Source: Candidatus Chisholmbacteria bacterium RIFCSPHIGHO2_01_FULL_52_32 (GTDB lineage: Bacteria > Patescibacteriota > Microgenomatia > UBA1400 > Chisholmbacteraceae). Taken from it: a stretch of 64,000 nt of DNA. The notes under the pieces are model-generated. The model was not told where the DNA came from and did not search any database. It was given only the letters and a program-made list of their open reading frames with translations. Of the stretch, positions 1 through 19,382 are shown piece by piece. The number at the start of each line of letters is the position of its first letter. The stretch's first letter is position 1. A program made the translations under genes and the position numbers. The stretch lies in the NCBI GenBank assembly GCA_001816585.1, contig MHCJ01000007.1, positions 2,062 through 66,061 of the forward strand, in the 5' to 3' direction.

Positions 1-145
1 CGAAGGCGGTTTTGAAGATTAGAGGTATGGGCCGTTGTTCTCATGGATGTCGGAAAGATCTCCTTTAAGGGTGCGTTGCACCCTCAACGTCCAGTATCCT
101 AACAAAGCACTGAGGCAAAGTCAAGCCGGAAAACCATAAAGACTG

Positions 146-628
146 TTACTTCTTCTCTTTTTTGCCCGAAGCTTCGCTCGCCTTATCCGAAGGCAACTCA
201 ATCTTTGGATTTTCAACCGGAATCGGCCCCCGAATCGCCATTTCAAGCGATTGATAGGCCAACACGAAGGCAGAAAGAAACACCAGGATCATGACAAACT
301 CCAAAACACTTCGGAGTCCTCCCACATAGAGAATCCCCAGATTCTCAAGCCCATCAACCACCTTCACCAAGGCCAATACGCTCATCCCGGCGGCAATCAG
401 CTTCCAAACATGCTCAAGCTTTCCGCCCCGCATCAGGGAAGCTACCTTAATGGCAAACCAGGCCACGATCACCGGCAGAATGAGGCCGACGTCATTGACG
501 AGTTTGATATCAAACTTCTGGAATATTTGGGACGAGAACAGGACATCCTGAGGAGGTTCCGAGGCAAAAACAGGTGAAACCATCCACAAGAACGAACCGG
601 AAAGCAGTAGTCGAACAATCCGCCTCAT
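146..628 (-). CDS. hypothetical small integral membrane protein
   Basis: 160-aa ORF with several hydrophobic helices; its start overlaps the stop of the upstream ORF 625..945 by 4 bp (ATGA), suggesting an operon. Confidence 0.55.
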   Translation of the reverse strand: MRRIVRLLLSGSFLWMVSPVFASEPPQDVLFSSQIFQKFDIKLVNDVGLILPVIVAWFAIKVASLMRGGKLEHVWKLIAAGMSVLALVKVVDGLENLGILYVGGLRSVLEFVMILVFLSAFVLAYQSLEMAIRGPIPVENPKIELPSDKASEASGKKEKK

Positions 629-945
629 GTTTCCCCCTTTCCGGCCGATGCCGCCGCATTCGCCACGACTTCAGCGACAGTCCCCGGATGTTTTGCGAGT
701 AGCGGCTCGATCGTTTTGCGGACAATCAGTCCCGAGAGATTCACGTACCCATTGATGAGGGACTGTAAAAGATCCTTTGCTTCTCCGCTGAAATCAACTA
801 CTTTCCCCTCTTCAGAAAACTTCAGTCCTTCAACCTTCTTGGCGATAATCACGGAAATATCCGGTCCTAACACAACCACCTGTCGCGCGATGATCTCATT
901 AAACAGGGAAATATATTCATCCTTTGACGATTGTCCGTCCGGCAT
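625..945 (-). CDS. hypothetical protein
   Basis: 106-aa ORF translationally coupled to 146..628; a candidate minus-strand promoter TTGACA-17-TATCGT lies at ~983-1010. Confidence 0.45.
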   Translation of the reverse strand: MPDGQSSKDEYISLFNEIIARQVVVLGPDISVIIAKKVEGLKFSEEGKVVDFSGEAKDLLQSLINGYVNLSGLIVRKTIEPLLAKHPGTVAEVVANAAASAGKGET

Positions 946-1043
946 AGTTGACCTCTATGATCAACGATAACGGCTATACGGTGTTGTGTCAAGAAGGATA
1001 ATTACAACCGAAAGAATACGTTTTACTCGAGGAGTTCCAAACT

Positions 1044-1066
1044 GTGGGTGAGGGAGGGATCGAACC
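1044..1066 (-). other. tRNA 3'-end-like fragment (T-loop GGTTCGATCC plus acceptor-like tail) with no matching 5' half
   Basis: reverse complement reads ...GCGGGGTTCGATCCCTCCCTCACCCA; no complementary 5' acceptor strand within reach (tRNA-Ile starts 100 nt away); abuts repeat copy A. Confidence 0.3.
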
Positions 1067-1129
1067 CCGCACAGCTCCTGCCTGAGCTACGGCTTTCAAC
1101 CTGTACTCTCAGGCGCGTCGTCTACGGGG
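1065..1129. repeat. copy A of a 65-nt structured repeat (outer stem CCCCG/CGGGG, inner stem GCCTGAG/CTCAGGC, conserved CTCCTGCC and GCGCGTCGT-TACG blocks)
   Basis: aligns base-for-base with copies at 2744..2809 and 8620..8684; the outer stem differs from copies B and C by a compensatory C-G to A-T change. Confidence 0.6.
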
Positions 1130-1166
1130 CAAGCCTTCGACCTCTGAATACAATTTTTGAGCTTTG

Positions 1167-1238
1167 TGGGTAGCCGTGGAATCGAACCACGCACCTCTTA
1201 CTTATCAGGTAAGCGTTCTGCCGATGAACTAGCTACCC
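1167..1238 (-). tRNA. tRNA-Ile (anticodon GAU); CCA not encoded
   Basis: reverse complement folds as a cloverleaf: acceptor GGGTAGC/GCTACCC, D-arm GTTC-ATCGGCA-GAAC, anticodon arm CTTAC-CTGATAA-GTAAG, T-arm CGTGG-TTCGATT-CCACG, discriminator A followed by CA. Confidence 0.9.
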
Positions 1239-1646
1239 TTTTTATGTTTCAGCTCCCTCTACACCCGTCGCTCCCCGGAGAACATCATCGACGTGCTCAG
1301 GCTTACCGGCAGTCGCTGCTTTGGTCGCCTCAACCCCCACAGCTCTTACCGCCTCAGGATGCTCGGCGATGACTCGACCCAAATGTTCCCGGAGCTCCTT
1401 TCCCGATAACTCCGCTACCGATGTTCCCGGCTTTGTTTCTGCCATCATACCTCCTTAACAGAACTCCCCTATCCTACCATAGACTTCTGAAAAAATCACA
1501 TCATGGCAAAACTAAAACCCTAAGATTTACGTTTTGAGTTTGAACGGATGCTTACACAGCAAGTATGTATTTTTCCCAGGAAATCATATGGGCTGATGCA
1601 TAATATTACCTACTACACCAATCTTTTCTCATCTCTGGCACTTACC

Positions 1647-1675
1647 TTGACAATGTGCTAATCACGTGGTATAGT
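1647..1675 (+). promoter_or_regulatory. near-consensus sigma70 promoter TTGACA-17 nt-TATAGT
   Basis: TTGACA at 1647-1652, exactly 17-nt spacer, TATAGT at 1670-1675. Confidence 0.6.
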
Positions 1676-1694
1676 ATCCCCATTCGGACAGGAG

Positions 1695-1726
1695 AATATT
1701 AGCCCCAAAGGCTAATATTTTTTTAA
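1695..1726 (+). terminator. intrinsic terminator: perfect 10-bp stem AATATTAGCC/GGCTAATATT, 5-nt loop, T7 run
   Basis: lies about 15 nt downstream of the predicted transcription start of the 1647 promoter; either a ~45-nt transcript or an attenuator. Confidence 0.55.
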
Positions 1727-1770
1727 GGCCTGAGCATTGAAAAATAAAATCTGATTGATCGCTCAAAAGA

Positions 1771-1957
1771 AAAACCCTTTTGAACGCAGCTACTCGAGAA
1801 TGAAGTGAGCGAATACCACTAAGATGTCATCGACTGTTCGACGAAGGGTTTATCCCGAGGAGTTTGATGACATGGAATGAGCGAACGAGTTCCCGAGAGA
1901 CCGTTCACTGGGGCGTCATTCTTTGGTTACTTTCTTGGATGAGCAAGAAAGTAACAA
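1771..1957. ncRNA. copy 1 of a conserved ~190-nt structured non-coding element (family unidentified)
   Basis: collinear nucleotide similarity to 58806..59001, including covarying hairpin GAGCG-(loop GGTTCCCGARAGA)-CGYTC and terminal hairpin TTTCTTGG-loop-CAAGAAAG; no credible ORF. Confidence 0.4.
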
Positions 1958-2123
1958 TTTCTCCTGGGTTCCACTCTGGTGGGAGGCTGCGAGCGCCTTT
2001 TTTTTAATTAGGTTCGTCCTTCCAGCGTTCCGCCAGAGTCGAGTCCAGGATGAAATACCCGGACGAAGACCCCGTAGCCATAGGAACTATGTGGTACCGG
2101 GGTTGAGTCCAGGAAAAATAAAA

Positions 2124-2186
2124 AACGCTTTAGAGGAGCAATCACGAAGGGCTTTGATACGCCGTGCCTCTAAAGCACGGCGTTTT
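2124..2186 (+). terminator. terminator hairpin GCCGTGC-CTCTAAA-GCACGGC plus TTTT, with an upstream alternative pairing GCTTTAGAGG/CCTCTAAAGC (antiterminator-like)
   Basis: two mutually exclusive pairings visible in the sequence; resembles a riboswitch or attenuator expression platform. Confidence 0.4.
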
Positions 2187-2368
2187 AGTTGTCCGAAGTA
2201 AATTGCTCTTTTAAAACCTTTTGAAGCCGCCGCCGCCGCGACTCAAAGATGAAACGAGTGGGAAACCAAAACTGACCGAAGGGAATTTTGGAGGGAAATG
2301 AAATGAACCTGACTGAAAGTCAAGATCTCCCACCGTCGAATCTGAAGAATCGCCGGCAAGGCTTCACT

Positions 2369-2420
2369 AGGGGGCCATTCTTTTGGATACTTTTCTTGGG
2401 CAAACAAGAAAAGTATCAAC
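2369..2420. repeat. partial third copy of the terminal hairpin module of the ~190-nt element (GCCATTCTTTTGG-ATACTTTTCTTGGGCAAACAAGAAAAGTATC)
   Basis: matches 1912-1957 and 58953-59001. Confidence 0.45.
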
Positions 2421-2743
2421 CGCCTGGATCCCAGGCATATGTAAAAACTTATAGTAATATAATCTGGGACTCTCCCCTCTGGTGGTCCCGGGAATTATTG
2501 ACAATAAACCTTAACAATTTGACCGAAAATAGGTGTCCGGGAGCGTGGGAGAAAAGGGCCAGCCTCGACTAGACGCCAGCCTCGCATAGATACAAGTCTA
2601 GGCGGGCGAGTCTAGGCGGGAGCAAATCCTCTAAAGCGCAGGCCGAAAGACCTGAAAACCCCTTTCTCCTACACTCCCTGGCATCAGGGGAGTCCCAAGA
2701 TTGCCTTGGGAAGATCCCCAAGATGAAAGGGGTTGCTCTTTAA

Positions 2744-2809
2744 CCACGCTACAACTCCTGCCTGATCTACGGCCTACGGCCTGTACTCTCAGGCACGTCG
2801 TATACGTGG
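2744..2809. repeat. copy B of the 65-nt structured repeat (outer stem CCACG/CGTGG)
   Basis: same orientation as copy A, 1.6 kb away; the two bracket the non-coding island. Confidence 0.6.
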
Positions 2810-3059
2810 TCTGCAGAGCTCATCTCGACATATTGTCGGGATTCGCTCTTTGACAATTGAATGGCGAGGTTCCCGATGAATACATCGAGAACCGAAGTCC
2901 CGCAGCAAAACCCGAATACCGATACGGCCGAATAGGCAGTGAGCGGTAAGTCGAGTTTTTGGTGCTGGGACGAGGTTCTCTGTATCCTCGGGAATCTTCA
3001 TAAAAATGAAAATAGGCGCAATAGTGATGCAGGGAAGAGTGGAATAAAACTATCTCACT

Positions 3060-3386
3060 TTACGAGGAGTGTTGCCCGCCAGGATGGATACTTTCAAGCT
3101 TCTCAAGCCTCTCTTCATGATCGTAAACTTTTGGAGCGAAAATATCCAGACTTTCTCGAATAGCTTTCAACTGGCCCATCACATCGGAGATAGCATTCAT
3201 AATTCGACTGCTATACATCTGGAACTTTTCCTCAAGTCTTCGGTCAACGACTTGCTCGATCTGATCAACATCCTGCTCCGTAAGCATAACGACACAATTC
3301 AACCACATCATCCCAAAGGAGTCAACGACATTTTGGGGAAGCAATTCCCCTCCACTCTCCCCTGCATCACTCGGGGAAAAACCCAC
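3060..3386 (-). CDS. hypothetical small protein (uncertain)
   Basis: 108-aa ORF divergent from the gene at 3421; competes with an overlapping plus-strand ORF 3069..3512 that runs out of frame into the next gene. Confidence 0.3.
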   Translation of the reverse strand: MGFSPSDAGESGGELLPQNVVDSFGMMWLNCVVMLTEQDVDQIEQVVDRRLEEKFQMYSSRIMNAISDVMGQLKAIRESLDIFAPKVYDHEERLEKLESIHPGGQHSS

Positions 3387-3420
3387 GCCCGTAAAGGGCT
3401 AGAGAAAAGGAGAAGGGACG

Positions 3421-3879
3421 ATGAAGTCGTTGAGGAAAGTGATCTTGCCCGCCGTAGTAGCAACTGCTATCTGTGTCCTCTTGTCGGAGGTATTGTTCCG
3501 GCTGCTGACTGATGCGCCGACCGCAAGTCCGCTCCGCTGGCTCGTGACTGACATGCAGCGCTTCACCGTGCTGATCTCTGTTCTACTTACTGCAGCCGTG
3601 CTGCTTCGACGGGACGATCGAGCACCTGAAGAAGTCCTGATGAGCGGATTCAGATTCACCGTCAAGGTCTACTGGCTGTACATCCGGATCGTCGTCGCGA
3701 TCGTGAGCACCGCCGTGGTTGCATACCTGGTAGTTGGCGCTGTCGTGGGAATCTTCAATCCCACAGATATCGCGATCTACCTGGGCGTCCCGATTCTGAC
3801 AGGCTTTGCGGCAGGAATACTCCTGCTGGCAGTCAAAGCCCTCATAAGAAGGAGTAACAACCACCAGCCGTCACCCTAG
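3421..3879 (+). CDS. hypothetical integral membrane protein (about 4 TM)
   Basis: 152 aa; ATG preceded by AAGGAG; the 20-nt leader AGGGCTAGAGAAAAGGAGAA is identical to the leader of the next gene. Confidence 0.7.
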   Translation: MKSLRKVILPAVVATAICVLLSEVLFRLLTDAPTASPLRWLVTDMQRFTVLISVLLTAAVLLRRDDRAPEEVLMSGFRFTVKVYWLYIRIVVAIVSTAVVAYLVVGAVVGIFNPTDIAIYLGVPILTGFAAGILLLAVKALIRRSNNHQPSP

Positions 3880-3919
3880 AGCCACCGGGCTCAGGGCTAG
3901 AGAAAAGGAGAAAAGGATC

Positions 3920-4573
3920 ATGAACGCGGAGACTCCTGTTGAACAGCCGATCTATGATGCCATAGATAATGCGTGGGCACATGCAAGCATCTGGGGCAAG
4001 ATCGGCATGGTTCTTGGAACACTGTTGGGAATCGTCCTACTCTTCTCTTGCATCTGGTCTTGGACCGCTGCAAGAGCTGCTAGGGACATGGCAGTCTCCA
4101 GAGCCAGGGAAGAGCTCCGGCAGAGCATCGGCATGGAGGTCGATGTCTTCGGCAACCCACACCCGGCCAGGTTCAGGGTTGAGAAAAACAGTCCCTGGGA
4201 CGAGCCTGTCAGAGGAACCCTCGTTGTCCTGCTTCCAGAAGGAGCCGAAGACTTCCAGATCTTGCCGGCCCTTGAGGTATCCGACACCGATTCGGGCTTG
4301 TTTGGCCTCACGGATTTCGAGCTTGCGCTCTCGAAATGCAGCTTCTCCGTCAACTACAACGTCGACGGGGTGCAACGCGCTCGAGTCTGGAATGGGTGCC
4401 CCACATTGAAGGAGGGCATCGAGATCGACGTTCGGGAGATCGAGGCCCGCGTCGGTGAAGACGAACATGCCTGGTCGCAGCCCACCCGCTCAACGAAAGA
4501 GTACGATCTGTTCGAGGTATTCGGGCTGTTAGTAGGCCTTCTCATCGACCAGCCAGAAGAATCCGGGAAGTGA
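3920..4573 (+). CDS. hypothetical single-pass membrane protein
   Basis: 217 aa; identical 20-nt leader and Shine-Dalgarno as the gene at 3421. Confidence 0.7.
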   Translation: MNAETPVEQPIYDAIDNAWAHASIWGKIGMVLGTLLGIVLLFSCIWSWTAARAARDMAVSRAREELRQSIGMEVDVFGNPHPARFRVEKNSPWDEPVRGTLVVLLPEGAEDFQILPALEVSDTDSGLFGLTDFELALSKCSFSVNYNVDGVQRARVWNGCPTLKEGIEIDVREIEARVGEDEHAWSQPTRSTKEYDLFEVFGLLVGLLIDQPEESGK

Positions 4574-4728
4574 TCACCCGCTCCGTATCCCGCAACCGAG
4601 GAGGACAAACTGAACAATCCTGACTCGTGAAAGACGGTAGAGACAACCGAAACTCATCCGCCTCCTGATCCCGAACTCACCGACAAGGTGAGAAATCTCC
4701 CGGGCAGGAGAAAGAAGGAGAAGGTGAA

Positions 4729-7065
4729 GTGAACCATCGTAACCGTACGTGGTATCCCCGTCTGGCGCTGGTCACGGTGGCAAGCATGCTGCTTGCCGCT
4801 GTCATGCCAATCGTTCCCACCGCCGCTTCGCCGGCAACCAGGCCTCTCGCCTGGAACGTCAGCCAAACGGCCGAGTCCGTCTGCATCCCTGAAAACCAAG
4901 TGGGTATCCAGGGAAGCTTCCGAAACGATGACAACCGTTCGATGGACGTCGTCGCCACGGACGAGCAGACGGGAAAATCCGTCAACCTGGGATCGGTCGC
5001 CCCGAATGAGACTGATGAGTTCCTCATCGAAACCGGCCTGTCGGTTGTTACCGAGGGCAAGGTCAGGTTCGACCTAACCTGGACGCAGGAAGATGATGAC
5101 GATGAGGACGGCGATACGACCCCGACGGAACCGCCCCCGGCGGAAACCGAAGATCCGACGGATGAGGCATCCCCGACTCCAACGGAGACCGTCGAGCCGG
5201 CACCGGAGGAAACGCCCATCCCTGATGATGACGGCGACGATTCCGATGACACGGAAGACTCGGACGACTCCGACGACGGAGAAGAGGAAGACGACGACTC
5301 CGACGGAGATGACCAGGACGATGACGGCGAAGATTCCGAAGACTCGGATGATTCCGACTCTGAGGATCGCAAGGGCGATCACGACGATGACGACGAAGAC
5401 GAGGATGAGGGAGACGACACGGCTTCGGCCGTTTTGAACTTCTTCTCAATCGGCGCCGTCGCCAATGCGGGCGGAAACCACGACGAGAAGTTCGCAGAGT
5501 ACGACGCCCGCGACTGCCGCCAGCCCGAACCGACCCCTGAGCCGACACAAGAACCGCCTCCTTCATGCTCGATATTGGCCTCTGCCAACAACGAGCAGTG
5601 GGTGAGCGTCAGCGTCGACTACTCAGGTGGACCTACCGGCTGGTGGTGGCAACTCGAGTACAACCTCGGAACTGGGTGGACCGAATGGGCAGGTTGGCAA
5701 AATGGCAGTTCGCCGAACCCATGGACTGCGGGCCAGACGTTTGCTCCAGGAACTCTAGACCTTCGGGTCAACTTTCTGGGCATCGGAAATGGCATCTGCG
5801 GTACATCGGTCGTCGTCCCCGAATCTCCTCCACCGGAGCCAACCCCGGAGCCGACTCCCGAACCGCGGGAGAACCCGCAATGTACCGGCGCATCCTACGC
5901 CTTCACGGACATCTTCCGCGAGGTCGAGGTCACTGCTTCCTGGCAGAACGCCACTATGACCTCCGTCGTCTGGGAGGACGCCACCCACTTCGAGTGGAGC
6001 AGTCCCTACCCTGACGGAGAAGGATCAGCCAAGCACATCATCGACGAAGCGCTCGGACCCGGGCCGCACCTGATCCAGGTTGTGGTCACCGGCGCCGAAG
6101 GCACCGATCCGAGCCTTTGCTCGCCGATCGAAGTGACCTTCCCAGCGCCACCGCGACCGACCCCGGAGCCCAAGCCTGAAGTCAGCGCCGCTGTACAGTC
6201 CCTTCCGCAGCTCTCCTTCTGCCTGAAGAGCCCAGCCATCGTGCTTGAGCGCGGTGGTGAGATCGTCCGTCTGGACGTGGACCTCCAAAAGCTTGTGATC
6301 GTTCAGGAGACCATCCTATCGGCAGACCTGGAGGGCATCAGCACTCACTCGAGGATCAGCCCGGACGGCTGCTTGGTCGTTTTCAGCCACACCATGCCAG
6401 GCGCTTCCCAAGCGGAGCTCTGGACGGTCGGGCTCAACGGCCAAGGGCTGTACCAAGTCACCCGGACAGAGGATGCAAGCGAAATCCAGCCTGACTGGGC
6501 CTCCAACTGGGTGATCGACTACAGCGCCGGAGGACAGCTTTTCTCGACAGACCGTCTGTACACGTTCGTCCGCGACCTGCGCGTCGCCGGAACAAGCCCT
6601 GACGCATCGCCGGACGGCGAGTGGGTAGGCTATACCGACCCGGATGGGAACATCCGCATCGTCAGCGCCCACACCGCACGTCTGGGTGACTTTGCCACCG
6701 GCTTGACCGGCACGAATCCGACGTTTGATCCCCGCGGAACTACGCTGTTCTACACCAGTGACGCCGGCCTCGAAGCGTTTACCTTCGCAAACCGCGAAGT
6801 AACCACCATCGACCGCTCCGCCACCGACATCGCACGGGATCCATCCAATCACGCAGCCCTCCTGGTTGTCAGCGGAGAGCTAGTGGTAGTCGATCCGGTG
6901 GATTCGGCAAATGTCGTCGGCACCCTCACCGGCCCCGAAGCCGAAACCGGCTTCCGAGCCCTGGCGGTCGAAGCCCCGAACCTCTCACCCGACTGGTGGG
7001 ATCCGAATCCGTTGGTGCCCAGCACCATCGGACTCCAGCTGTTCCTCACAGGGAACGGCACCTAA
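4729..7065 (+). CDS. secreted multidomain protein: signal peptide, ~110-aa poly-acidic (D/E/S) tract, proline-rich PEPTPEP linkers, C-terminal TolB-like beta-propeller repeats
   Basis: 778 aa; GTG start after AAGGAGAAGG; N-terminal hydrophobic signal; repeated SPDG..W.. propeller-like motifs; antisense ORFs over the acidic tract are artefacts. Confidence 0.8.
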   Translation: MNHRNRTWYPRLALVTVASMLLAAVMPIVPTAASPATRPLAWNVSQTAESVCIPENQVGIQGSFRNDDNRSMDVVATDEQTGKSVNLGSVAPNETDEFLIETGLSVVTEGKVRFDLTWTQEDDDDEDGDTTPTEPPPAETEDPTDEASPTPTETVEPAPEETPIPDDDGDDSDDTEDSDDSDDGEEEDDDSDGDDQDDDGEDSEDSDDSDSEDRKGDHDDDDEDEDEGDDTASAVLNFFSIGAVANAGGNHDEKFAEYDARDCRQPEPTPEPTQEPPPSCSILASANNEQWVSVSVDYSGGPTGWWWQLEYNLGTGWTEWAGWQNGSSPNPWTAGQTFAPGTLDLRVNFLGIGNGICGTSVVVPESPPPEPTPEPTPEPRENPQCTGASYAFTDIFREVEVTASWQNATMTSVVWEDATHFEWSSPYPDGEGSAKHIIDEALGPGPHLIQVVVTGAEGTDPSLCSPIEVTFPAPPRPTPEPKPEVSAAVQSLPQLSFCLKSPAIVLERGGEIVRLDVDLQKLVIVQETILSADLEGISTHSRISPDGCLVVFSHTMPGASQAELWTVGLNGQGLYQVTRTEDASEIQPDWASNWVIDYSAGGQLFSTDRLYTFVRDLRVAGTSPDASPDGEWVGYTDPDGNIRIVSAHTARLGDFATGLTGTNPTFDPRGTTLFYTSDAGLEAFTFANREVTTIDRSATDIARDPSNHAALLVVSGELVVVDPVDSANVVGTLTGPEAETGFRALAVEAPNLSPDWWDPNPLVPSTIGLQLFLTGNGT

Positions 7066-7487
7066 GTAGCACTCGTCCCACGAAGGGACAACCGAACCTC
7101 GCCATTCACCTGGAAGGGACCTCGCTCCCTACACCCGCTCACTGACGTTTCGCGTCAGGAAGAATAGTCAAGTCTGACTTGACGCATTCGGCAGCGGCAG
7201 GGTCGAACCTTTTCAGGTCACAAGGGTATCTGGTAATAGATCGGGCAGAGCAATGCCGTGAAGTCACTGGACGATCGAAAGATCGCGTGTCTTCTGGATT
7301 TCATCCAGACTGACCTCCACCTTCCCCATTGCCCGCGCCCCAAATCTCTACCAGCACTACCCTCCTTGGTCCGTTAAACGGGCCCTGATGAGATCTCGTC
7401 AGGATTGCAATTTGCATCCGACGATCCGTAAACAGGAATCAGGACATTTACCCTGAGCCTGTCGAAGGGCAGATCGAAAGGAAATCA

Positions 7488-8456
7488 CTACCGCTCACCC
7501 ATCACCACCGGCTCCTCATACACCCGCCATTCAATTTTTTCCATGAACCGCTTAAGGTAGTCCCGCTTCCACGCCAAGCTTCGGGGGGATTTCAACACCG
7601 CCAGCGGAAAATTCACCCGCAGCGCCCGGAACCGAATGATATGCCGGGTAATCCCGGGAGGAAACTTCTCTCCGGCCCGAACCACATTCAGCACATCCTG
7701 CGGCCGAAAGGTCGGGAAAAACAACACCACGTTTTTCCCTTGATGACGGCGGAAGAACTCCGCCAGGGTCTCTTCGTCAAAGAACACATCCTCCTGATCG
7801 CGAATCACCAAATGCTTATAGAAATCAACCACCTTGTTCATCAGGGAAACCTGCGAAACAAGCTCCTCATTCCCCCACACTCTGCACGCCTTCCCGTCGG
7901 CAAACACGACCAAACAAACCGTGCGCTTCTCCAAAGACACATGCCGATCCCGACCAACTTTAAGTAAATCAACCGAAACGCCGGGCAGCCCCCGAATAAG
8001 CCTCATGAACCGTCGCTCGTCAACCGCGGACACATGGCACCAGGATTTCAACTCGACCGACCGGGGATCAAAATAATCAACCACCTGAACGATCGCGTGG
8101 GGATAGCCGAGTTCCGCAAGGGTGGTAAGCCGATTCGCCCCATCCAAGTGGAGGTACCGCGAACCAAAGGCGGCCACGATCGGCGGGTTCATGAGCACTC
8201 CGTCCTCCTCTATTTTCCGCAGTAAGTCACGCGAAATACCGGAGTCAAAGTACTCCTGGATAACAACCGAGCGTAGGGGAACAATCCGAAGATCGGGAAG
8301 AAGGTAGGACATGAAAAGAGCATAGTGTATGAAAAAACTCACCGCAATAGGAAAGAGGAAGCCATATGCCAAAAACACCCCGCCAAAAAAGTTGCAGTCG
8401 GGGTGTATAATTGGGAGTGCCTGCTCCAGAAGAAATTGAACAATACTCCTGCCCAA
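7488..8456 (-). CDS. membrane-anchored protein with a ParB/Srx-like N-terminal domain (degenerate LDGANRL motif)
   Basis: 322 aa; N-terminal TM helix; the segment RYLHLDGANRLTTLAELGYPHAIVQVV resembles the ParB nuclease-domain core. Confidence 0.55.
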   Translation of the reverse strand: MGRSIVQFLLEQALPIIHPDCNFFGGVFLAYGFLFPIAVSFFIHYALFMSYLLPDLRIVPLRSVVIQEYFDSGISRDLLRKIEEDGVLMNPPIVAAFGSRYLHLDGANRLTTLAELGYPHAIVQVVDYFDPRSVELKSWCHVSAVDERRFMRLIRGLPGVSVDLLKVGRDRHVSLEKRTVCLVVFADGKACRVWGNEELVSQVSLMNKVVDFYKHLVIRDQEDVFFDEETLAEFFRRHQGKNVVLFFPTFRPQDVLNVVRAGEKFPPGITRHIIRFRALRVNFPLAVLKSPRSLAWKRDYLKRFMEKIEWRVYEEPVVMGER

Positions 8457-8619
8457 GTTTTCAATAAAAGATTGTTACGACAGTGATAACATCTCTAATC
8501 GACTTTTCCAAACCTGCCTGACACCTCCGAAAAAAGGGGTGTCGAACGTTTCCGTCGCGCCCAGGCGGCTGAATGTATCGTGCTCAGCCGATCGTTGGCG
8601 TGAGCGGAAAGCACTTTGA

Positions 8620-8684
8620 CCACGCTACAACTCCTGCCGGCAAAATCCGCTTAGCGTATTCTTGCGGGCGCGTCGTATACGTGG
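8620..8684. repeat. copy C of the 65-nt structured repeat (outer stem CCACG/CGTGG, variant inner stem)
   Basis: identical 5' block CCACGCTACAACTCCTGCC and 3' block GCGCGTCGTATACGTGG as copy B; about 30 nt of additional downstream similarity to the flank of copy B. Confidence 0.6.
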
Positions 8685-8899
8685 TTTGCGGTGCAAAAGC
8701 ACCTTAACAAGTGAATGATGAGGTTACTTGTCCCTTTTGTGGGACAAGGAATTCTCTATAGCCCCGGAAAACTCGACAATCGTGCGTTGCAGAGACATCC
8801 CCCGCGTTCCGCCAATCGGCGGACTACTGAGGAAAAGGAGGTCAACAGGAAACGGCCTATCAATCCGCGCGCTAAATCAAGTACGAAGGAGACGTTCCC

Positions 8900-9202
8900 A
8901 TGGCAAGACGGATCGGAATGGTCGTCGGGAGCGCTATTGGGCTGGCTGTCGGAGTGCCCGTCGCCATCGTCATGGTAGCCTCACGGCCGCACTTCAACAT
9001 CCAAAGCCCGGACGCCACGATTATCTGGTTCGCGCTGGTCTTCATCCTTCTCACCGTCTTGCCATACGTCTGCGCAGTGTTCTTCGGTGAGATAGCTGAA
9101 GCCGTCGTCCAGAAAGTGAACAAGCGTCGCAAACCACCGGCACCACCTCAAGCAGCGGTTGCGACCGACTCAAGGCCGCGACCAAGGGAGAAGCAGCCAT
9201 GA
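8900..9202 (+). CDS. small membrane protein (2 TM)
   Basis: 100 aa; ATG preceded by AAGGAG; stop overlaps the start of the next gene (ATGA). Confidence 0.55.
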   Translation: MARRIGMVVGSAIGLAVGVPVAIVMVASRPHFNIQSPDATIIWFALVFILLTVLPYVCAVFFGEIAEAVVQKVNKRRKPPAPPQAAVATDSRPRPREKQP

Positions 9203-10092
9203 AGACAAAACTGCAACCGATGATCCTCGTTTGCACGGCACTCTTCCTGGTCTCGTGCAGTAGAGATGCCTCCGCGCTGAGCAGCGGTGAGATCGCCGCC
9301 ACGGCACTCGCCGCAGATCTCCGGGAAACCGAGCAAGTCAACCAGGCGAAAGATCAAGCCAATCAGGCAACCGAGCAAGCCATCCAAGCTACTCAGGCAG
9401 CCCTGGAACAACCAACGGACATCCCCATACCAGTGGTGGCAACCCAACCAACCGAAGAGGTCTCTTCCTTTGCAGACATGGGTCTGAACCACTGGGCGTA
9501 TCAAGGCCGCAAGTGGGCCATCGACCAGGGTTATGCGACCGCATGCTCGGTCGAGGGCGGAGATCCGACCCAAGTCTACGCCTGCCCGGACAAGCCGATG
9601 CAAATCTGGGAGCTCATCGAGTCCGGAGTCAGGTTCTACCATGACACCCAGTCGTTCAGACCGCCGGAGGCCACGGGCAGAACCTTCGATGACCCTGACT
9701 TTCACGGCCACGAAGGTGAAGCGTGGGCAGAGGATGCCAGTCGGCAAAACATCCTTCCCGATTGGTTCCTCACCAACTACCCCAACCCGCACTACATCGG
9801 GCCCTTCCGCACGGCGACCCGCTGCGACGGCCACGTCTTTGTGCGGGTGCTCCTCTACAAGAAGCTCGAGTTCCCCAACTGGGACCTTTTGGCAGAGCGT
9901 CAATTCTCGGACTACTACAAAGCCTCGAGACTCTGCAATCAAGCCGCGGAAGCCAACCTCGAAGAGGGGATCTTCGACCCGGGCCCGGCAAGCCTGCTGG
10001 AGCCTGAACGGGAACTTGACTGGGGGTATTGGTCCGTCCTCCTCTATCAGGCTGACTCCGTCCGAACCAAGAACTCCGATCCGGCTAACTAG
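9199..10092 (+). CDS. secreted lipoprotein, function unknown
   Basis: 297 aa; lipobox-like LVSC after the signal peptide; the long antisense ORF 9148..10209 is rejected. Confidence 0.75.
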   Translation: MKTKLQPMILVCTALFLVSCSRDASALSSGEIAATALAADLRETEQVNQAKDQANQATEQAIQATQAALEQPTDIPIPVVATQPTEEVSSFADMGLNHWAYQGRKWAIDQGYATACSVEGGDPTQVYACPDKPMQIWELIESGVRFYHDTQSFRPPEATGRTFDDPDFHGHEGEAWAEDASRQNILPDWFLTNYPNPHYIGPFRTATRCDGHVFVRVLLYKKLEFPNWDLLAERQFSDYYKASRLCNQAAEANLEEGIFDPGPASLLEPERELDWGYWSVLLYQADSVRTKNSDPAN

Positions 10093-10130
10093 CGGTTGCG
10101 ACCTTCGGCCGTAACCAAGGAGAGGCATCC

Positions 10131-11276
10131 ATGTCCAAACGGTCGTTGATCCTGATTTCATCCGTGTTCGCCATCCTCCTGATTGGAGCCTGCACTCGCG
10201 TAGGTTCACCAGTATCCCAGCAGCAGATGTTGGGAACTTGGGTGGCAGGCAGTGTGACGGCGGTCTTCAGGACGCAGGAAGCTCAAGTCACGCCATCGGC
10301 AACGCCGTCGGCCACTCCACAACCTACGCACACCGCGACGGCTTCCCTCACCGCAACCGCCACCGTCACACCGATCATCGTCGTCGACGTGCCTGATCCC
10401 AAGGAGCGCGAGGACGCTCTTTGGAACATCGACAAGGACCTGATGAGGCCAAAGCTTCGGGACCCGTTGACCTTCGGCCGCAATGATCCCTACATCATGG
10501 GTGACATGGCCATCGCCATGGGGAGAGCCTGCCTGTGGGACAAGATCGAGAAGCCGTTCGGGACGGTTTTCACCGATCTGGGTGTCGTCGTACCCCCTCC
10601 AAGGGCCAGTCCTGAAGAACTCCGGCAGGCCGAGCATCAAAGGCTCGTCCTCGCAGTCTCGGAAGAGCTGTTCCAGCGGGGGCTCTATCTCCACAAGAAC
10701 CCGGCCAAGCCGAACCTGTCCAACTGGGACGACACGCTCACCCCAGATCAACTCCGCCAGTGGTGGGAAATGGCCTCCAACTCTCCCGAGTGCCGGGAGC
10801 AGATGACAAGCTCAGGTGGCGGGAACTCCCCCGGCATCACCCTTTTCACCAACGCCGTCAGTTTCAACCGGGTGAGTCTCCTGGCAAGCACGAACACGCC
10901 GAAGTCGAATCCGATTCCGACCCGGACTCCCGTCCCGAAGCCGACCGACCCACCGGAGCCGAAGCCCAAGACAGCCACGCCGGCTCCGCCAACAGCGGTT
11001 CCTCCATCCAATACGCCGGTACCACCGACCGACACCCCGGTACCACCCAGCAACACGCCCAAACCTGGAGGTGGTGGGAATGACGACGACGACGACCCGA
11101 CCAAGACCCCGAAGCCGGTGATCTATTACACGGCGACACCGTCTATTTGTGTCGATGGCGCCGTGGTCGGCGGCTGTGGTCTGACGAGAATCCAGGCGGC
11201 AGACCTTCTGCATCAATATCTCGCCGACTGGGTTTTCCCGCCCAACCAGCTGCCTCCATCGCAGAACGGTCCCTAG
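10131..11276 (+). CDS. secreted lipoprotein with a Pro/Thr-rich C-terminal linker
   Basis: 381 aa; signal peptide with IGAC lipobox; PT-rich low-complexity region. Confidence 0.75.
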   Translation: MSKRSLILISSVFAILLIGACTRVGSPVSQQQMLGTWVAGSVTAVFRTQEAQVTPSATPSATPQPTHTATASLTATATVTPIIVVDVPDPKEREDALWNIDKDLMRPKLRDPLTFGRNDPYIMGDMAIAMGRACLWDKIEKPFGTVFTDLGVVVPPPRASPEELRQAEHQRLVLAVSEELFQRGLYLHKNPAKPNLSNWDDTLTPDQLRQWWEMASNSPECREQMTSSGGGNSPGITLFTNAVSFNRVSLLASTNTPKSNPIPTRTPVPKPTDPPEPKPKTATPAPPTAVPPSNTPVPPTDTPVPPSNTPKPGGGGNDDDDDPTKTPKPVIYYTATPSICVDGAVVGGCGLTRIQAADLLHQYLADWVFPPNQLPPSQNGP

Positions 11277-11725
11277 CGCCTGCATCCGAAGCAGCGCCTC
11301 TCAGGACCTCATCATTCACAACCAGGGAAACGCACCCGTGTAATACCCACGCGCTAACCCTCTCCCCAGCGGAGAGAAGCAAACGCCGCGCGTTTGGCAA
11401 GACATAGGGAGCGTTCTCCCCCAGGAAAAAACGGGCAAGCTTTTTTGCTTGCGACTGGGCATCAAGTGTGGGGAAAGAACAAGAGAGAATCTGTCTCTCT
11501 GACTGAGGGAACCATCCCTCACTCAAGTTCCCCCCCACTCCCATTCGCAACCATCCGCCCGTTTTTTCATGCCTAAAAAGGGGAAATAGGAGTGCCAAAA
11601 CGATACAGGTTGTACATCCTTTACACAATAAACGATGTTCGGATGAAATAACTTGACCGCAAGGTGTATACTAATCTTCGCGATATATCTTCTGCTCAGT
11701 CTCCTGCTAGAATCTGCCCACCGTA

Positions 11726-12655
11726 ATGAAACAGAAACTCGGATTGGCAATCGGCGTCATCTGCCTCCTTCTTCTCGGAATGGTATCCGCTGTGCGGATC
11801 GCCAAGGCCGCCAGCCCCGCAGCTTGCTCAATCAACACCTTCCCTGTCAATGATCCCAACACCCGTTACCACACGGTCTTCACCTGGAGCAATGCCCACA
11901 CAAACCAATGGTTCCTCTTTCAATGGGGCGATGAAGCCAATACCGGCAAAGATCCCGTGGGATTCATCGGCCAAAGCGGTAGGGCGGAATGGGAACACGA
12001 GTACAACCCCGGAACTTGGGAACAGTGGGCAAACCTTTCCGGTCCGGGAGGAAACGGCGGATGCAAGGTCTCGGTAACCGTCCAGGTCACACAAGACCCC
12101 GCCAGCTGTACAATCGAAGCCTTTGTTGACGGATCAAATCCCAGCCTCTTCCACACGGTACTGCGCTGGAACAACACAAACGATGGCGAGTGGTCCCTTT
12201 TCCATTGGGGCGATGAGGAATTCACCAAAGCCGATCCCCCGGGATTCCGCGGACCGTTTGGGGAAATTTCCTGGGACCACGAGTACAACCCCGGAACCTG
12301 GGATCAGTGGGCCAACGTTGCAGGACCGAGAGGCAATGGGAGTTGTAAAGTCGTGGTTACCGCAAAACTCCAACAACCGGCGGCAACCTGTACCATCACC
12401 ACCAATCCGGTGAATGTCGAACAGACCCGCTTCCATACGACGCTCACTTGGAACAACTCGTACAGCGACCAATGGTCCCTCTTCCACTGGGGCGATGAAG
12501 AATTCACCCAAGCCGGCCCTGTCGGTTTCTTCGGCAGCAATGGAACAACGGAATGGGAACACGAATACAACCCCGGCACCTGGGAACAGTGGGCCAACGT
12601 TTCCGGTCCCGGCGGTCCCAGTGGCTGCAAAGTCATCACTTCCGTCAACCCATAA
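11726..12655 (+). CDS. secreted protein made of three ~95-aa tandem repeats (conserved HT.F/LTW.N....W.LF.WGDE and EHEYNPGTWEQWAN.SGPGGNG.CKV blocks)
   Basis: 309 aa; signal peptide; three collinear internal repeats, each starting with a Cys and ending with CKV. Confidence 0.8.
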   Translation: MKQKLGLAIGVICLLLLGMVSAVRIAKAASPAACSINTFPVNDPNTRYHTVFTWSNAHTNQWFLFQWGDEANTGKDPVGFIGQSGRAEWEHEYNPGTWEQWANLSGPGGNGGCKVSVTVQVTQDPASCTIEAFVDGSNPSLFHTVLRWNNTNDGEWSLFHWGDEEFTKADPPGFRGPFGEISWDHEYNPGTWDQWANVAGPRGNGSCKVVVTAKLQQPAATCTITTNPVNVEQTRFHTTLTWNNSYSDQWSLFHWGDEEFTQAGPVGFFGSNGTTEWEHEYNPGTWEQWANVSGPGGPSGCKVITSVNP

Positions 12656-12697
12656 ACCACCTTGAAAGGTCTGACCTTTCAAGGTAATCTTCCCCAC

Positions 12698-12728
12698 AAA
12701 AAAACCGCCTCTTAAAGCGGTTTTCTTG
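12698..12728 (+). terminator. intrinsic terminator AACCGC-loop-GCGGTT plus T-run
   Basis: follows the stop of 11726..12655; preceded by an A-run, so possibly bidirectional. Confidence 0.55.
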
Positions 12729-12828: not shown

Positions 12829-14345
<1,517 letters not shown>

Positions 14346-14393
14346 AAATTTGACGCAGTCAAATCCGCCAACTGGCGGACAGACCACGTCTGA

Positions 14394-17921: not shown

Positions 17922-19382
17922 TCAAGGTAGGTCAACTGGCTGCAAATCCAACCGAAAGTAAACTTCATTCACTATCGTCCTCGCCCATTCGTTGAGTCGA
18001 TTGTGCGTTCCGTCCAAAATCGTTCGTCCGAACACCAATTTTCCGCAGCGAAGGTGTGGCTTCACCAAATCTCCCCTCCTTGGCACCCCATCGGTAAGCA
18101 CAAACTCATCAGGATGTTGTATATCAAGCGGTGTCACTCCCTCCCTCACCCACTCGACTCCAAACTTTTCACTTTTCACTTTAAACTTTGAACTTAACTT
18201 ATAGACTCCCGCCTTCAAATCACCTTTCACTTCTGCCCACCGTTCCGGATCCTTATTATGTAAGACCAAATGCGCCCCCTCCTTCGGCGCCTTCAACGAT
18301 CGATCAACCGCTGCAAAGTCCATCGTATAGTTGATGTCCAAGAACTCTAAAAGCTGGAACACATCAAATGGGATTTCCCCCTTCTGGAGCTGAAGAAACG
18401 AATAGACCGGGAACGCTCCGGTGTAGCGCGGGTTGATCTCATTGGGATAAACCTTCCCTGACTTAGCATCAATCATCAAATCCACCCCAAAAACACCTTT
18501 GTACCCCTGATGCGCCATCGCTTCACCCAGGTTTCTGGCAATCCGCTCCGCCCCTTTCTGTATCGCTGAAGAATAATGTCGGAAGCTCCAATCGTGTCCC
18601 CGCCAGATTCCCCGCCGCTCCCTCAGATTCACAAGCTCCGGAACATCAAGAATCTGCGTCTGCACCAAACCAGTTAACACTCCGTACCGAGTTACACAAC
18701 CCGTTATCGACCCAGAAATCCCATCAATGAAGCGACTGACGTTCACCAACTGCGTTCGAGAAAGATCCAATCGCCCTTTTGCATCCTCCAAAAATGTCCG
18801 AAAGTCAGAAATATCATTGATAAAATACGTTCCTTTTCCTCCACCTTCCGAGAAACTCGTAAGCTGAAACACCAACTGCCTCCCTAGCCTCTTCCTTAGC
18901 CTCCGGTAGTCATCCTCGGTAAATTTCTCAACCTCCCACTGCTCCCCCGGGATTGGAGCCAGTCCGAGTCGTCTAACCAGTGTAAAGAACGCATCCTTAT
19001 CCTCAAACTGATCCCGGATCGCCCGCGGATTGGCAAGAAGCAGCCATCCTTGCTCCTGACAAAACCGATCCACCCACTCCGTATGCTTATAGGAAAAGAC
19101 GGCTATCTTCCCCAGGCTTTGCAAATACCGTAAAACCCCGGGATGCTTAAGAATGGCCTGCGTGTTGAGTTTTTCAACCTCATTTGGAGAGAAGTCGCGC
19201 TGCACTGCTCGGATCGGGCAAAACCGCTTCAGGAAAGAGAGATCGCTCCCCCACTTGTAGCAGACAATCTCGTAGTTTGATGTCACCAAAGCCGGAGAAA
19301 TCCTCCCAAACGCCGTCAGTCCAATTCCCACAATATGGCGCCCTGCCCCATCAAGAAGCTTACAGTAATCCTGAAATTCCAT
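17922..19382 (-). CDS. large ATP-grasp superfamily enzyme (pre-ATP-grasp plus ATP-grasp core)
   Basis: 486 aa; the segment GVFGVDLMIDAKSGKVYPNEINPRYTG is typical of the ATP-grasp C-terminal subdomain. Confidence 0.7.
   Translation of the reverse strand: MEFQDYCKLLDGAGRHIVGIGLTAFGRISPALVTSNYEIVCYKWGSDLSFLKRFCPIRAVQRDFSPNEVEKLNTQAILKHPGVLRYLQSLGKIAVFSYKHTEWVDRFCQEQGWLLLANPRAIRDQFEDKDAFFTLVRRLGLAPIPGEQWEVEKFTEDDYRRLRKRLGRQLVFQLTSFSEGGGKGTYFINDISDFRTFLEDAKGRLDLSRTQLVNVSRFIDGISGSITGCVTRYGVLTGLVQTQILDVPELVNLRERRGIWRGHDWSFRHYSSAIQKGAERIARNLGEAMAHQGYKGVFGVDLMIDAKSGKVYPNEINPRYTGAFPVYSFLQLQKGEIPFDVFQLLEFLDINYTMDFAAVDRSLKAPKEGAHLVLHNKDPERWAEVKGDLKAGVYKLSSKFKVKSEKFGVEWVREGVTPLDIQHPDEFVLTDGVPRRGDLVKPHLRCGKLVFGRTILDGTHNRLNEWARTIVNEVYFRLDLQPVDLP

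Follow-up and report, generated by a model that had tools for sequence, protein, structure and literature searches.

A family of small hairpin insertions beside displaced gene ends in Patescibacteria-type genomes

Introduction

Near the start of the window, as we call the whole 64,000-nt stretch of DNA analysed here, two almost identical structured elements lie on either side of a 1.6-kb interval, and one of them abuts a fragment resembling the 3' end of a tRNA. A preliminary description proposed that such elements might be a novel small RNA family, the terminal repeats of a non-autonomous mobile element, or recombination sites. What are these elements, and how did one of them come to lie against a piece of a tRNA gene?

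Results

The copies form one hairpin family

Three copies were found at the places claimed for them, in one shared orientation. All are of a single 65-66-nt imperfect hairpin type:

1065-1129, minus strand: hairpin copy A; outer stem CCCCG/CGGGG; 84 bits with the covariance model
2744-2809, minus strand: hairpin copy B; outer stem CCACG/CGTGG; 89.6 bits with the covariance model
8620-8684, minus strand: hairpin copy C; 71.7 bits with the covariance model

The compensatory change reported in the outer stem (CCCCG/CGGGG in A, CCACG/CGTGG in B and C) was confirmed, and the conserved blocks CTCCTGCC and GGCRCGTCGTMTACG, together with the inner stem, were borne out in the copies. Copy C equals A and B at the base and in the internal loop, and differs from them, with compensation, in the middle stem and at the apex. 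A fourth copy (D), located just beyond the window, is inverted and has the outer stem CCCTG/CAGGG. A 40-nt degenerate pattern matched A and B and none of 100 shuffles. When folded, each copy formed one long hairpin; the window copies reached -28 to -32 kcal/mol on the minus strand (z -3.7 to -5.5) and -23 to -26 kcal/mol on the plus strand. Folding with 30-nt flanks added gave nothing consistent by way of a conserved outer stem.

Genome and metagenome collections were scanned with the conserved flanks as a pattern, which yielded seven true homologues. The remaining matches were attributed to chance in GC-rich coding DNA, first on visual inspection and subsequently with the covariance model, and a scan of viral contigs gave one match, also by chance. 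The alignment comprised the only 12 copies known, from nine contigs (four in the window genome and eight in other Patescibacteria-type contigs). Here the covariation inferred earlier proved to be real: 94.2% of the cells were paired, compared with only 32-44% in slid controls, nine of the 23 pairs had changed on both sides, and the covariation score was reached by none of 500 shuffles. Across the copies, the base and the purine-rich internal loop (5'-CGACG / 5'-AGGAG, with possible tandem G-A pairs) are invariant, in contrast to the variable apex and middle stem. A gene start on the same strand lies 26-215 nt downstream in eight of the 12 copies.

The expectation of a structured family without an Rfam counterpart was also upheld, as Rfam 15 gave no family on the hairpin. 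At the gathering score, only the 16S rRNA and tRNA-Ile were matched in the whole window; between positions 900 and 3100 no match at E<=10 fell on A or B, and at the loci of the other copies the hairpin was likewise unmatched. A protein search with the peptides that the hairpin would encode (four frames) gave no match, and a full-text literature search found no description of such an element.

The interval between copies A and B is an rRNA operon spacer

The window genome has at least four copies, and these surround a split rRNA operon, with the 16S rRNA gene at 12833-14347, and tRNA-Ala and the 23S and 5S rRNA genes just outside the window start. Within the approximately 83 kb of this genome that were covered, the four copies are clustered within 20 kb and none occurs in the remainder, a distribution unlike that of a dispersed repeat. 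The proteins encoded from window position 1 to 12,700 have no family matches. For the window, an assembly artefact was rejected, since the locus is present in eight retrieved contigs (L038-L045) from several sources (ENA, NCBI, JGI) that are 99.9-100% identical to the window.

The interval between A and B had been described as devoid of any convincing CDS. It contains, however, a 68-aa ORF (1242-1448, minus strand) with a Shine-Dalgarno site, which is a called gene in public assemblies. It also holds a tRNA gene of the split operon:

1164-1238, minus strand: intact tRNA-Ile(GAT) (ARAGORN, 1166-1238; Rfam, 62.6 bits)

A relative with a 16S rRNA 88.6% identical to that of the window genome (contig L051) has the orthologous copy A at 18951-19020 (76.7 bits, 84% identical), and lacks copy B at the orthologous site although the flanks are conserved. 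Its interval is syntenic and conserved in patches: besides tRNA-Ile, the blocks corresponding to window positions 2517-2443, 2050-1961, 1733-1617 and 1499-1461 are kept. The idea of a 1.6-kb island did not survive this comparison, and the interval is plain conserved spacer DNA of the split rRNA operon, in which two such insertions happen to lie. As copy A occupies the same place in genomes whose 16S rRNAs are 11% apart, it looks stable and vertically inherited rather than active. A gene block of approximately 4.2 kb after copy C (about 8500-12700) is missing in L051, with copy C at one edge. In two more distant relatives (L054 and L056, whose MnmA is 54% and 57% identical to that of the window), tRNA-Ile and tRNA-Ala lie 0.4-0.7 kb apart and no hairpin is present.

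A further difference between relatives was seen in a protein gene. In L007, the hairpin sits in frame within a loop of comEC, and a 472-aa ORF reads through it, whereas comEC orthologues that are 80-87% identical (including P0002 and P0003) are without the hairpin. This was the only copy that qualified as an in-frame palindromic insertion.

Copy A adjoins a displaced tRNA-Ile end

The suspected tRNA scar beside copy A turned out to be a genuine displaced tRNA-Ile 3' end, and its counterpart in L051 has the same arrangement. The two features next to the hairpin are:

1043-1064, minus strand: fragment of a displaced tRNA-Ile 3' end (H), T-loop through discriminator, plus CA; flush with hairpin A
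1130-1163, minus strand: non-conserved spacer (S'), separating the intact tRNA-Ile end from hairpin A

On the minus strand the fragment reads TTCGATCCCTCCCTCACCCA plus CA. Its repeat partner (H') is formed by the last 20 nt of the intact tRNA-Ile plus CA (1164-1185). The fragment agrees with the window's own tRNA-Ile 3' end at 16 of 22 positions and with that of L056 at 19 of 22, the T-stem CCTCC included. The intact tRNA-Ile is internally consistent and the fragment is of another type; it carries the T-stem of another lineage's tRNA-Ile. In L051, the order is tRNA-Ile, spacer, hairpin, and then an 18-nt copy of its own tRNA-Ile 3' end. The spacer there is longer (about 90 nt) and contains a second piece resembling a tRNA 3' half, that is, a second scar.

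Copies B and C have short repeats of the same geometry

Short repeats were also found flush with the other two hairpins of the window (no strand assigned):

2729-2743: displaced short repeat H of copy B, GGGGTTGCTCTTTAA, plus C2744, which is shared with the stem; flush with the hairpin
2838-2876: repeat partner H' of copy B, GGGATTCGCTCTTTGAC, continuing into the conserved motif TTGACAATTGAATGGCGAGGTT
8607-8619: displaced short repeat H of copy C, GGAAAGCACTTTGA, plus C8620; flush with the hairpin
8693-8708: repeat partner H' of copy C, GCAAAAGCACCTTAAC, running on into the motif seen at copy B

Both repeats are short and each falls below the shuffle threshold; taken alone, that of copy B is weak (score 16 compared to a 95th-percentile shuffle score of 18). 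Its geometry and motif recur at copy C and at L031. The motif is common to the flank of copy C, L031 and a hairpin-free site in L051 (18066-18099, 88% identical).

In other genomes the hairpin adjoins displaced gene starts

Outside the window genome, the hairpin adjoins displaced 5' gene ends, namely those of ruvC, of a galU-like gene and of one further gene (gene identities RuvC, NTP_transferase and MreB). The displaced piece consists of the first 12-16 codons, and the intact gene start follows after a short spacer. In all three cases, the reading frame of the displaced start continues across the hairpin as far as a TGA that shares bases with the new ATG (ATGA), and the old start is thereby coupled to the new one.

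Flush duplications were scored by local alignment against the best of 200 shuffles. The duplication at L018 (19/19 nt) scored 38 compared to 25, that at L017 (36 nt) 37 compared to 23, and that of the tRNA-Ile end at L051 (17/18 nt) 31 compared to 22. Copy A of the window and L033 have a flush duplication as well, more weakly; no significant duplication was detected by local alignment at L001, L007, L029 and copy D. A duplicated target end together with a restored gene is present at copy A and in L051 (tRNA-Ile) and at L017, L018 and L033 (protein genes, one contig each). Without exception, the junction coincides exactly with the hairpin base, and the overlaps are short, at 10-36 nt.

The two ends are not identical. 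At L033 (MKVLGIDPGFGR compared to MRVLGIDPGFGR), all nine nucleotide differences in the 29-nt repeat are synonymous. The L017 pair has seven synonymous codon differences and one V/I change, and at L018 the K-I-R codons differ only synonymously while the two 5' leaders are unrelated. Since H and H' differ almost only at synonymous sites, they are diverged functional alleles from different lineages, and a target-site duplication was rejected on this ground and on that of the unrelated leaders. We conclude that the hairpin belongs to an undescribed family of small insertions at gene ends, located beside a displaced spare gene end. The mobile or recombination-associated behaviour suspected in the preliminary description is borne out by the insertion differences among relatives and by the flush duplicated gene ends.

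Discussion

A miniature integrating element as the best explanation

We propose that every copy marks the insertion of a tiny non-autonomous integrating DNA, about 100-180 bp long, of which the 66-nt hairpin is the sole conserved part, and estimate the probability of this reading at roughly 0.5. On the plus strand of the window, the layout is U-H, hairpin, short variable spacer, H'-D. H is a broken-off copy of a gene end, flush with the hairpin base, and H' is the counterpart that is still part of the intact gene; these ends are the tRNA-Ile 3' end at copy A, a short conserved motif at B and C, and gene starts elsewhere. A single crossover at H between the chromosome and a small circle (hairpin-spacer-H') would give this layout. 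A recombinase supplied in trans may recognise the folded hairpin and cut at its base, and the carried gene end would guide the element to its target or restore it. The circular intermediate, the strand that folds and any present activity of the element are also matters that we infer. A double-stranded circle of 100-180 bp would be mechanically awkward, and the intermediate would have to be single-stranded or something else. The inserts, about 100-180 bp long, lack an ORF of their own. Neither Pfam on about 40 window ORFs, nor PHROGs on the unknown ORFs, nor the called genes of the flanks revealed an integrase, transposase or HUH protein; one may nevertheless be encoded between positions 1 and 12,700, where the proteins are without family matches.

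More tentatively, the copies could be miniature 'gene-end cassettes', which would form a new class of elements in Patescibacteria. The folded 66-nt hairpin might then be the attachment site for an enzyme supplied in trans, and a gene end captured from the previous host (the 3' end of a tRNA, or the region of a start codon together with the ribosome-binding site) might choose the target by homology and replace the end that is lost. Gene ends would in this way be shuttled between lineages, and the target would be set by a swappable homology segment instead of the recombinase.

Alternative explanations

It is rather unlikely that the hairpin acts primarily as a functional structured RNA (protein-binding, processing, stability, or a 5'-UTR regulator) in the rRNA spacer and in various gene transcripts, with its mobile-looking features secondary, as in ERIC or REP elements that also act as RNA. 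Such a function would agree with the strong covariation and the invariant loop, whose strands could form C-G, G-A, A-G and C-G, with the better folding of the minus strand, on which nine cells are G-U compared to three A-C cells (G-U on the other strand), and with the retention of copy A after tRNA-Ile in L051. Moreover, the plus-strand loop exposes CUCCU, which resembles an anti-Shine-Dalgarno sequence, in a family that mostly has a gene start downstream. The partner gene, however, is inconsistent (tRNA-Ile, ruvC, the galU-like gene, mreB, comEC, hypothetical genes), both orientations relative to neighbouring transcription occur, one copy lies within an ORF (L007), close orthologous sites are without the hairpin, and Rfam has no match. 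The flush allelic gene-end fragments would be left unexplained. Alternatively, the hairpin might be a mere hot spot for the illegitimate joining of foreign DNA, with natural transformation supplying the DNA, one-sided homology anchoring it and the hairpin ending the imported tract, all without a dedicated element or enzyme. H and H' are indeed alleles from different lineages, these genomes carry comEC, and the tRNA-Ile looks as if an imported tract ending at the hairpin had replaced all but its last 22 nt. We nevertheless regard such passive joining as improbable, because the same 66-nt family is found at every junction in unrelated genomes, the position at the hairpin base and the 10-36-nt overlap are constant, and the conservation and covariation of the hairpin call for selection on it.

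The remaining readings are less probable still. With its attC-like length, conserved base and variable apex, the imperfect hairpin, whose three copies share one orientation and are spaced by 1.7 and 5.9 kb among small unknown genes, recalls a cluster of integron-type attC sites that marks gene cassettes without an integrase. We consider this very improbable: the core sites R'' (RYYYAAC) and R' (GTTRRRY) are absent from all 12 copies on both strands, no integrase was found among the window ORFs or the called genes of the flanks, one interval holds a tRNA gene and conserved spacer, and insertion of an attC leaves no duplicated gene end. There is hardly any room for copy A and its flank being a degenerate tRNA or tRNA-like gene, with B and C as tRNA-derived pseudogenes. 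The T-loop GGTTCGATCC and the acceptor-like tail beside A do suggest this, as does the 3' strand of the hairpin (GGCAGGAGCTGTGCGGGG), which we take to resemble the anticodon-stem, variable-loop and T-stem part of a bacterial tRNA. Yet neither ARAGORN nor the Rfam tRNA model, even at E<=10, called a tRNA at copy A plus its flank; the T-loop and the 3' strand of the acceptor are present there and the 5' partner is absent, the T-loop is missing in B, C and nine other copies, and the L051 fragment begins inside the T-loop, which means that a T-arm cannot form. Equally implausible is the idea, considered in the preliminary description, that a 1.6-kb non-autonomous island lies at a tRNA and has A and B as its terminal direct repeats. 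Their equal orientation at a distance of 1680 bp would fit, as would the tRNA gene and the tRNA-like scar found at one of the two ends. Against this stand the blocks of the interval kept in L051, which has copy A and not copy B, the existence of further copies, C and D, of which D is inverted, and the local repeat that each copy has of its own; no repeat partner of the kind expected for a large integrated element was found up to 20 kb away.

Implications

Patescibacteria (CPR) have small genomes, for which reports of mobile elements are few. If the integrating element is confirmed, its targets would be the ends of essential genes (tRNA-Ile in the rRNA operon, ruvC, the galU-like gene), which it would keep working through the replacement end that it supplies and, in protein genes, through the coupling of stop and start. 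It would offer selfish DNA a compact way of persisting in streamlined genomes, allow lineages to exchange gene starts, leaders and tRNA ends, and point to a possible recombination system that recognises hairpins and has a defined 66-nt substrate. In the annotation of these MAGs, the family accounts for tRNA-like scars, for duplicated gene starts and for odd short ORFs upstream of genes, and identifies the long 'gene-poor' stretch here as conserved split-rRNA-operon spacer instead of an island.

Comparison with known systems

REP/REPIN sequences are built from a palindromic unit of 20-40 bp, one end of which carries an unpaired tag, GTAG or CGTC (PMC3733652). Like the present hairpins, REP/REPIN sequences with their RAYTs are short palindromes that are mostly intergenic and sometimes within genes, form families common to several species, are thought to be mobilised in trans and may act as RNA hairpins (PMC3733652). 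The hairpin described here differs in being a single 66-nt unit in which GTAG occurs in six of 12 copies, within paired columns, and CGTC lies in the internal loop and not at an end. REPs also reach high copy numbers, dispersed between genes and with an associated RAYT gene, and are without gene-end duplications. Of the present family, the approximately 83 kb covered in the window genome contain four copies, all within 20 kb. No Y1 transposase was seen in the window ORFs.

Rickettsia palindromic elements and ERIC-type units share with the hairpin the in-frame insertion in protein genes (here comEC of L007), co-transcription with neighbours and compensatory changes that keep the hairpin. They are longer (100-150 bp) and show no sequence similarity to it, and to our knowledge neither flush displaced gene ends nor replacement starts with stop-start coupling have been reported for them. 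MITEs have terminal inverted repeats and a target-site duplication of fixed length made on insertion. A MITE was rejected, since the repeats here are 10-36 nt and variable in length, the spacer is on one side only, and the synonymous differences speak for an allelic origin. IS200/IS605 elements have different subterminal hairpins at their two ends and insert 3' of a fixed 4-5-nt target without duplication. Ends of this type were rejected as well, because there is a single hairpin, the junction sequences vary and a duplication is present.

Integron attC sites and the hairpin attP of CTX phage are closer. They too are imperfect hairpins of similar size (the length falls within the 57-141 nt of attC), with structure more conserved than sequence at the apex, crossover at the base of the stem, and a complete palindrome at one extremity of the integrated insert. 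The present hairpin, in contrast, has neither RYYYAAC nor GTTRRRY, no IntI in the window or its flanks and no dif-like target, and leaves a duplicated allelic gene end, which those systems do not. In an integron, an IntI integrase and attI would lie nearby, or each cassette ORF would have a site behind it.

The same topology is known from phages and ICEs that restore the tRNA gene or gene end into which they have inserted, and SXT in prfC is an example of 5'-end replacement by an integrative element. Compared with such integrase-type elements, the hairpin insert is only about 100-180 bp long and carries no integrase or other gene, its sole conserved part is the 66-nt hairpin exactly at one junction, and its targets vary from copy to copy without a common core sequence. 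In other respects the likeness, which extends to integrase-less (cis-mobilisable) derivatives, is close: the insert lies between direct repeats that are a duplicated gene end. As in integrase-type elements, the two ends differ at synonymous sites, junctions fall in the tRNA T-loop, scars occur in series (here in L051), and the target stays intact through the supplied end while the displaced end is left as a scar.

Copies and structure of the hairpin

The window holds three copies of a hairpin of 65-66 nt (A, B and C), all in one orientation (n = 3), together with only two RNA genes.

Hairpin copies and RNA genes in the window
1065-1129, minus strand: hairpin A, outer stem CCCCG/CGGGG
1166-1238, minus strand: tRNA-Ile
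2744-2809, minus strand: hairpin B, outer stem CCACG/CGTGG
8620-8684, minus strand: hairpin C, outer stem CCACG/CGTGG
12833-14347, minus strand: 16S rRNA

On the minus strand, the consensus reads CCNCG-TAKACGACGYGCC, a 29-nt variable hairpin, and GGCAGGAGYTGTA-(N)CGNGG. When folded, each copy forms a single long hairpin, with energies of -28 to -32 kcal/mol (z -3.7 to -5.5) on the minus strand versus -23 to -26 kcal/mol on the plus strand. A search of Rfam matched no family to it, with the gathering score applied to the full window and a cut-off of E<=10 to 900-3100. The copies and the outer-stem difference between A and B/C are as stated in the preliminary description, and further copies were found.

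Pattern scans of JGI metagenomes and of one genome per species yielded seven true homologues, in the Patescibacteria MAG L001, the 2-kb contig L007 (labelled Planctomycetia, with comEC relatives in Patescibacteria) and the loci L017, L018, L029, L031 and L033. The remaining matches were due to chance and lay in GC-rich genes. As the scans demanded an exact match to the conserved flanks, the number of copies is a minimum. An eighth homologue, in the relative L051, was reached via synteny. Searched with a covariance model of ten copies, the 64-kb window gave A, B and C and no others, and the 9 kb past its far end gave none. About 5 kb past the 5S gene the model detected a fourth copy, D, in opposite orientation and with the outer stem CCCTG/CAGGG.

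Across the 12 copies, standard pairs occupied 94.2% of cells, and 9 of the 23 pairs had changed on both sides. The covariation score was reached by none of 500 shuffles, and pairing fell to 32-44% once the partners were slid as a control. The stem base and an internal loop (5'-CGACG opposite 5'-AGGAG) are invariant, and the middle stem and apex show compensated variation. Selection therefore acts on the structure of the hairpin.

The interval between A and B is an old spacer

An exact protein match puts the window on contig MHCM01000003.1 (1.158 Mb) of GCA_001816955.1, and its gene content and closest named homologues indicate Patescibacteria (CPR). Several public sources together supplied eight contigs of this locus, all 99.9-100% identical to the window. 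With 10 kb added past the window start, the locus proved to be a split, minus-strand rRNA operon in the order 16S, 11.6 kb containing C and B, tRNA-Ile, A, two small ORFs, tRNA-Ala, 23S and 5S. The two ORFs (106 and 160 aa) are conserved in L051. The 11.6-kb gap between 16S and tRNA-Ile carries genes without known function on both strands. None of ten proteins tested from 1-12,700 had a significant Pfam or PHROGs match; below threshold there were one Pfam match (E=0.003) and two weak PHROGs matches (E 0.0015-0.006). Three 282-nt tandem repeats (region 11863-12679) lie within the ORF at 11726-12655, and an acidic (D/E-rich) 9-nt-periodic repeat (5224-5424) within the ORF at 4729-7065.

L051 (16S 88.6% and MnmA 62% identical) has the same operon order. 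It carries a hairpin after tRNA-Ile (76.7 bits, 84% identity) and keeps blocks of the A-B interval (2517-2443, 2050-1961, 1733-1617, 1499-1461 and tRNA-Ile). At the site orthologous to B no hairpin was found; the flanking motif is kept there (L051 18066-18099). The preliminary description had proposed a 1.6-kb island bracketed by A and B and suggested looking for its absence in relatives. Because the interval is conserved in blocks in L051, with A but without B, it is an old spacer, not an insert with the two copies as its borders. Nor does the interval lack a coding sequence, as had been thought: the 68-aa ORF at 1242-1448 is called in public assemblies and is a real small gene.

Also missing from L051 is a block of about 4.2 kb with four plus-strand genes (about 8500-12700), after copy C. 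The block sits between the 16S terminator and a 322-aa gene, with C at one edge; in L051 the 322-aa gene directly follows 16S.

Two further features of the interval were observed. On the plus strand, 1647-1735 contains a near-consensus promoter (TTGACA, 17 nt, TGgTATAGT) and, no more than about 10 nt after it, a short hairpin and T-run; the promoter would yield a transcript of only ~45 nt, antisense to the rRNA operon, and the block is 76% identical in L051 (about 18476-18596). Two related hairpin-bearing stretches at 1902-2000 and 2360-2450 (GGGGCgtCATTCTTTGGTTACTTTCTTGG...CAAGAAAGTAAC and GGGGCCATTCTTTTGGATACTTTTCTTGG...) correspond to the "~190-nt element" noted previously; this region is partly conserved in L051 (2517-2443, 2050-1961).

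Gene ends are repeated flush with the hairpin

Directly after copy A, the minus strand reads TTCGATCCCTCCCTCACCCA-CA. This fragment matches the 3' end of the window's own tRNA-Ile at 16/22 positions and that of the more distant relative L056 at 19/22, T-stem included. In L051, the hairpin is directly followed by AGTCCAAGGCGGCTCACA, which agrees at 17/18 positions with the 3' end of the tRNA-Ile in the same genome. The tRNA-3'-end scar noticed earlier beside A is thus real. The hairpin itself was rejected as a tRNA. Between tRNA-Ile and hairpin, the L051 spacer holds a second piece resembling a tRNA 3' half (18860-18935; T-arm GATGG-TTCGATC-CCATC, acceptor strand CGGAACC, then ACA), which suggests serial events at the tRNA-Ile site.

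For every copy, the sequence flush with the hairpin was compared with 400 nt on the other side, using 200 shuffles. Repeats were clearest in L018 (19/19 nt, score 38, best shuffle 25), L017 (36 nt, 37 versus 23) and L051 (17/18 nt, 31 versus 22). A, B, C and L033 gave weaker matches with the same geometry, and four copies had no detectable repeat.

The repeat is the start of a neighbouring gene in L018 (NTP_transferase, galU-like), L033 (RuvC) and L017 (a gene beginning MKIVADLHLHSKYSR). In gene sense, all three show an old ribosome-binding site and start codon, 12-16 codons, the hairpin, a spacer of 26-65 nt that carries a new ribosome-binding site and start codon, the same codons again and the remainder of the gene. 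Differences between old and new starts are almost all synonymous: 9/9 within the 29-nt repeat of L033, seven codons besides one V/I change in L017, and four nucleotides in the K-I-R codons adjoining the 19-nt identical block of L018, where unrelated leaders precede the two starts. A duplication made by insertion would begin as identical copies, one of which then decays at random; the two starts, by contrast, are functional alleles that come from different lineages. In 3/3 cases the reading frame of the old start continues across the hairpin to a TGA stop overlapping the new ATG (ATGA), the arrangement expected if translational coupling keeps the gene expressed. In L033, ruvC lies immediately downstream of a region (2604-5255) with a 16S gene that fits the archaeal model best and contains a group I intron, with LAGLIDADG-like ORFs nearby.

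A short motif, GCNCTTTGAC, makes up the flush repeat at B, C and L031 and, less clearly, at L029. At the first three, its partner leads into a block of 25 conserved nt, TTGACAAYTGAATGRYGAGG, after which comes a variable compensated hairpin (block regions 2838-2876 by B, 8693-8730 by C and about 1640-1680 in L031). L051 has the block (18066-18099) without the 66-nt hairpin. The block may be a leader or a small RNA's end.

Gain or loss between relatives

In L007, the hairpin lies within the loop-coding part of comEC, and a 472-aa ORF reads through it; the orthologues P0002 and P0003 (80-87% identical) are without it. This case, the absence of B in L051, and the hairpin-free spacers of 0.4-0.7 kb between tRNA-Ile and tRNA-Ala in the more distant relatives L054 and L056 show that the hairpin has been gained or lost between relatives. 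The comEC loop is a mosaic of small inserts common to distant orthologues. A cytoplasmic-loop region of comEC is hypervariable (L007 560-860, with orthologues P0001-P0009 and loci L049 and L058) and contains several different short in-frame inserts, some near-identical in DNA between orthologues ~51% identical in protein.

A probably mobile element and its relation to known systems

The layout of displaced gene end (H), hairpin, spacer, the same end joined to the intact gene (H') and gene would result if a small circle (hairpin-spacer-H') crossed over once with the chromosome. Its topology is that seen when an integrase inserts DNA into tRNA genes or gene ends and the target is restored. Just about 100-180 bp long, the insert has the hairpin as its sole conserved part, so it would be non-autonomous and depend on an enzyme from another locus; neither the window nor its flanks yielded a recombinase. 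Such an enzyme may recognise the folded hairpin and act at its base, the carried gene end providing homology and replacement. Of the earlier interpretation, a structured, probably mobile element next to a tRNA scar stands; the island does not.

A structured RNA, which would be compatible with a mobile origin, is a live rival. A occupies the same site in two genomes 11% apart in 16S, four copies cluster within 20 kb, and four lack a repeat. The invariant internal loop would suit RNA-protein contact, and in 8/12 copies a gene start lies 26-215 nt downstream on the element's plus strand.

REP sequences measure 20-40 bp, carry an unpaired tag (GTAG or CGTC) and are present in high copy number (PMC3733652); the hairpin differs in length and tag and is not a REP in that sense. 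It is not a MITE either, since its repeats are variable and allelic. The comEC insertion in L007 recalls the in-frame Rickettsia palindromic elements. In size and variable apex the hairpin is like attC, but neither core site is present in it and no integrase was seen. The nearest functional analogy is a gene-end-restoring integrative element cut down to its attachment region.
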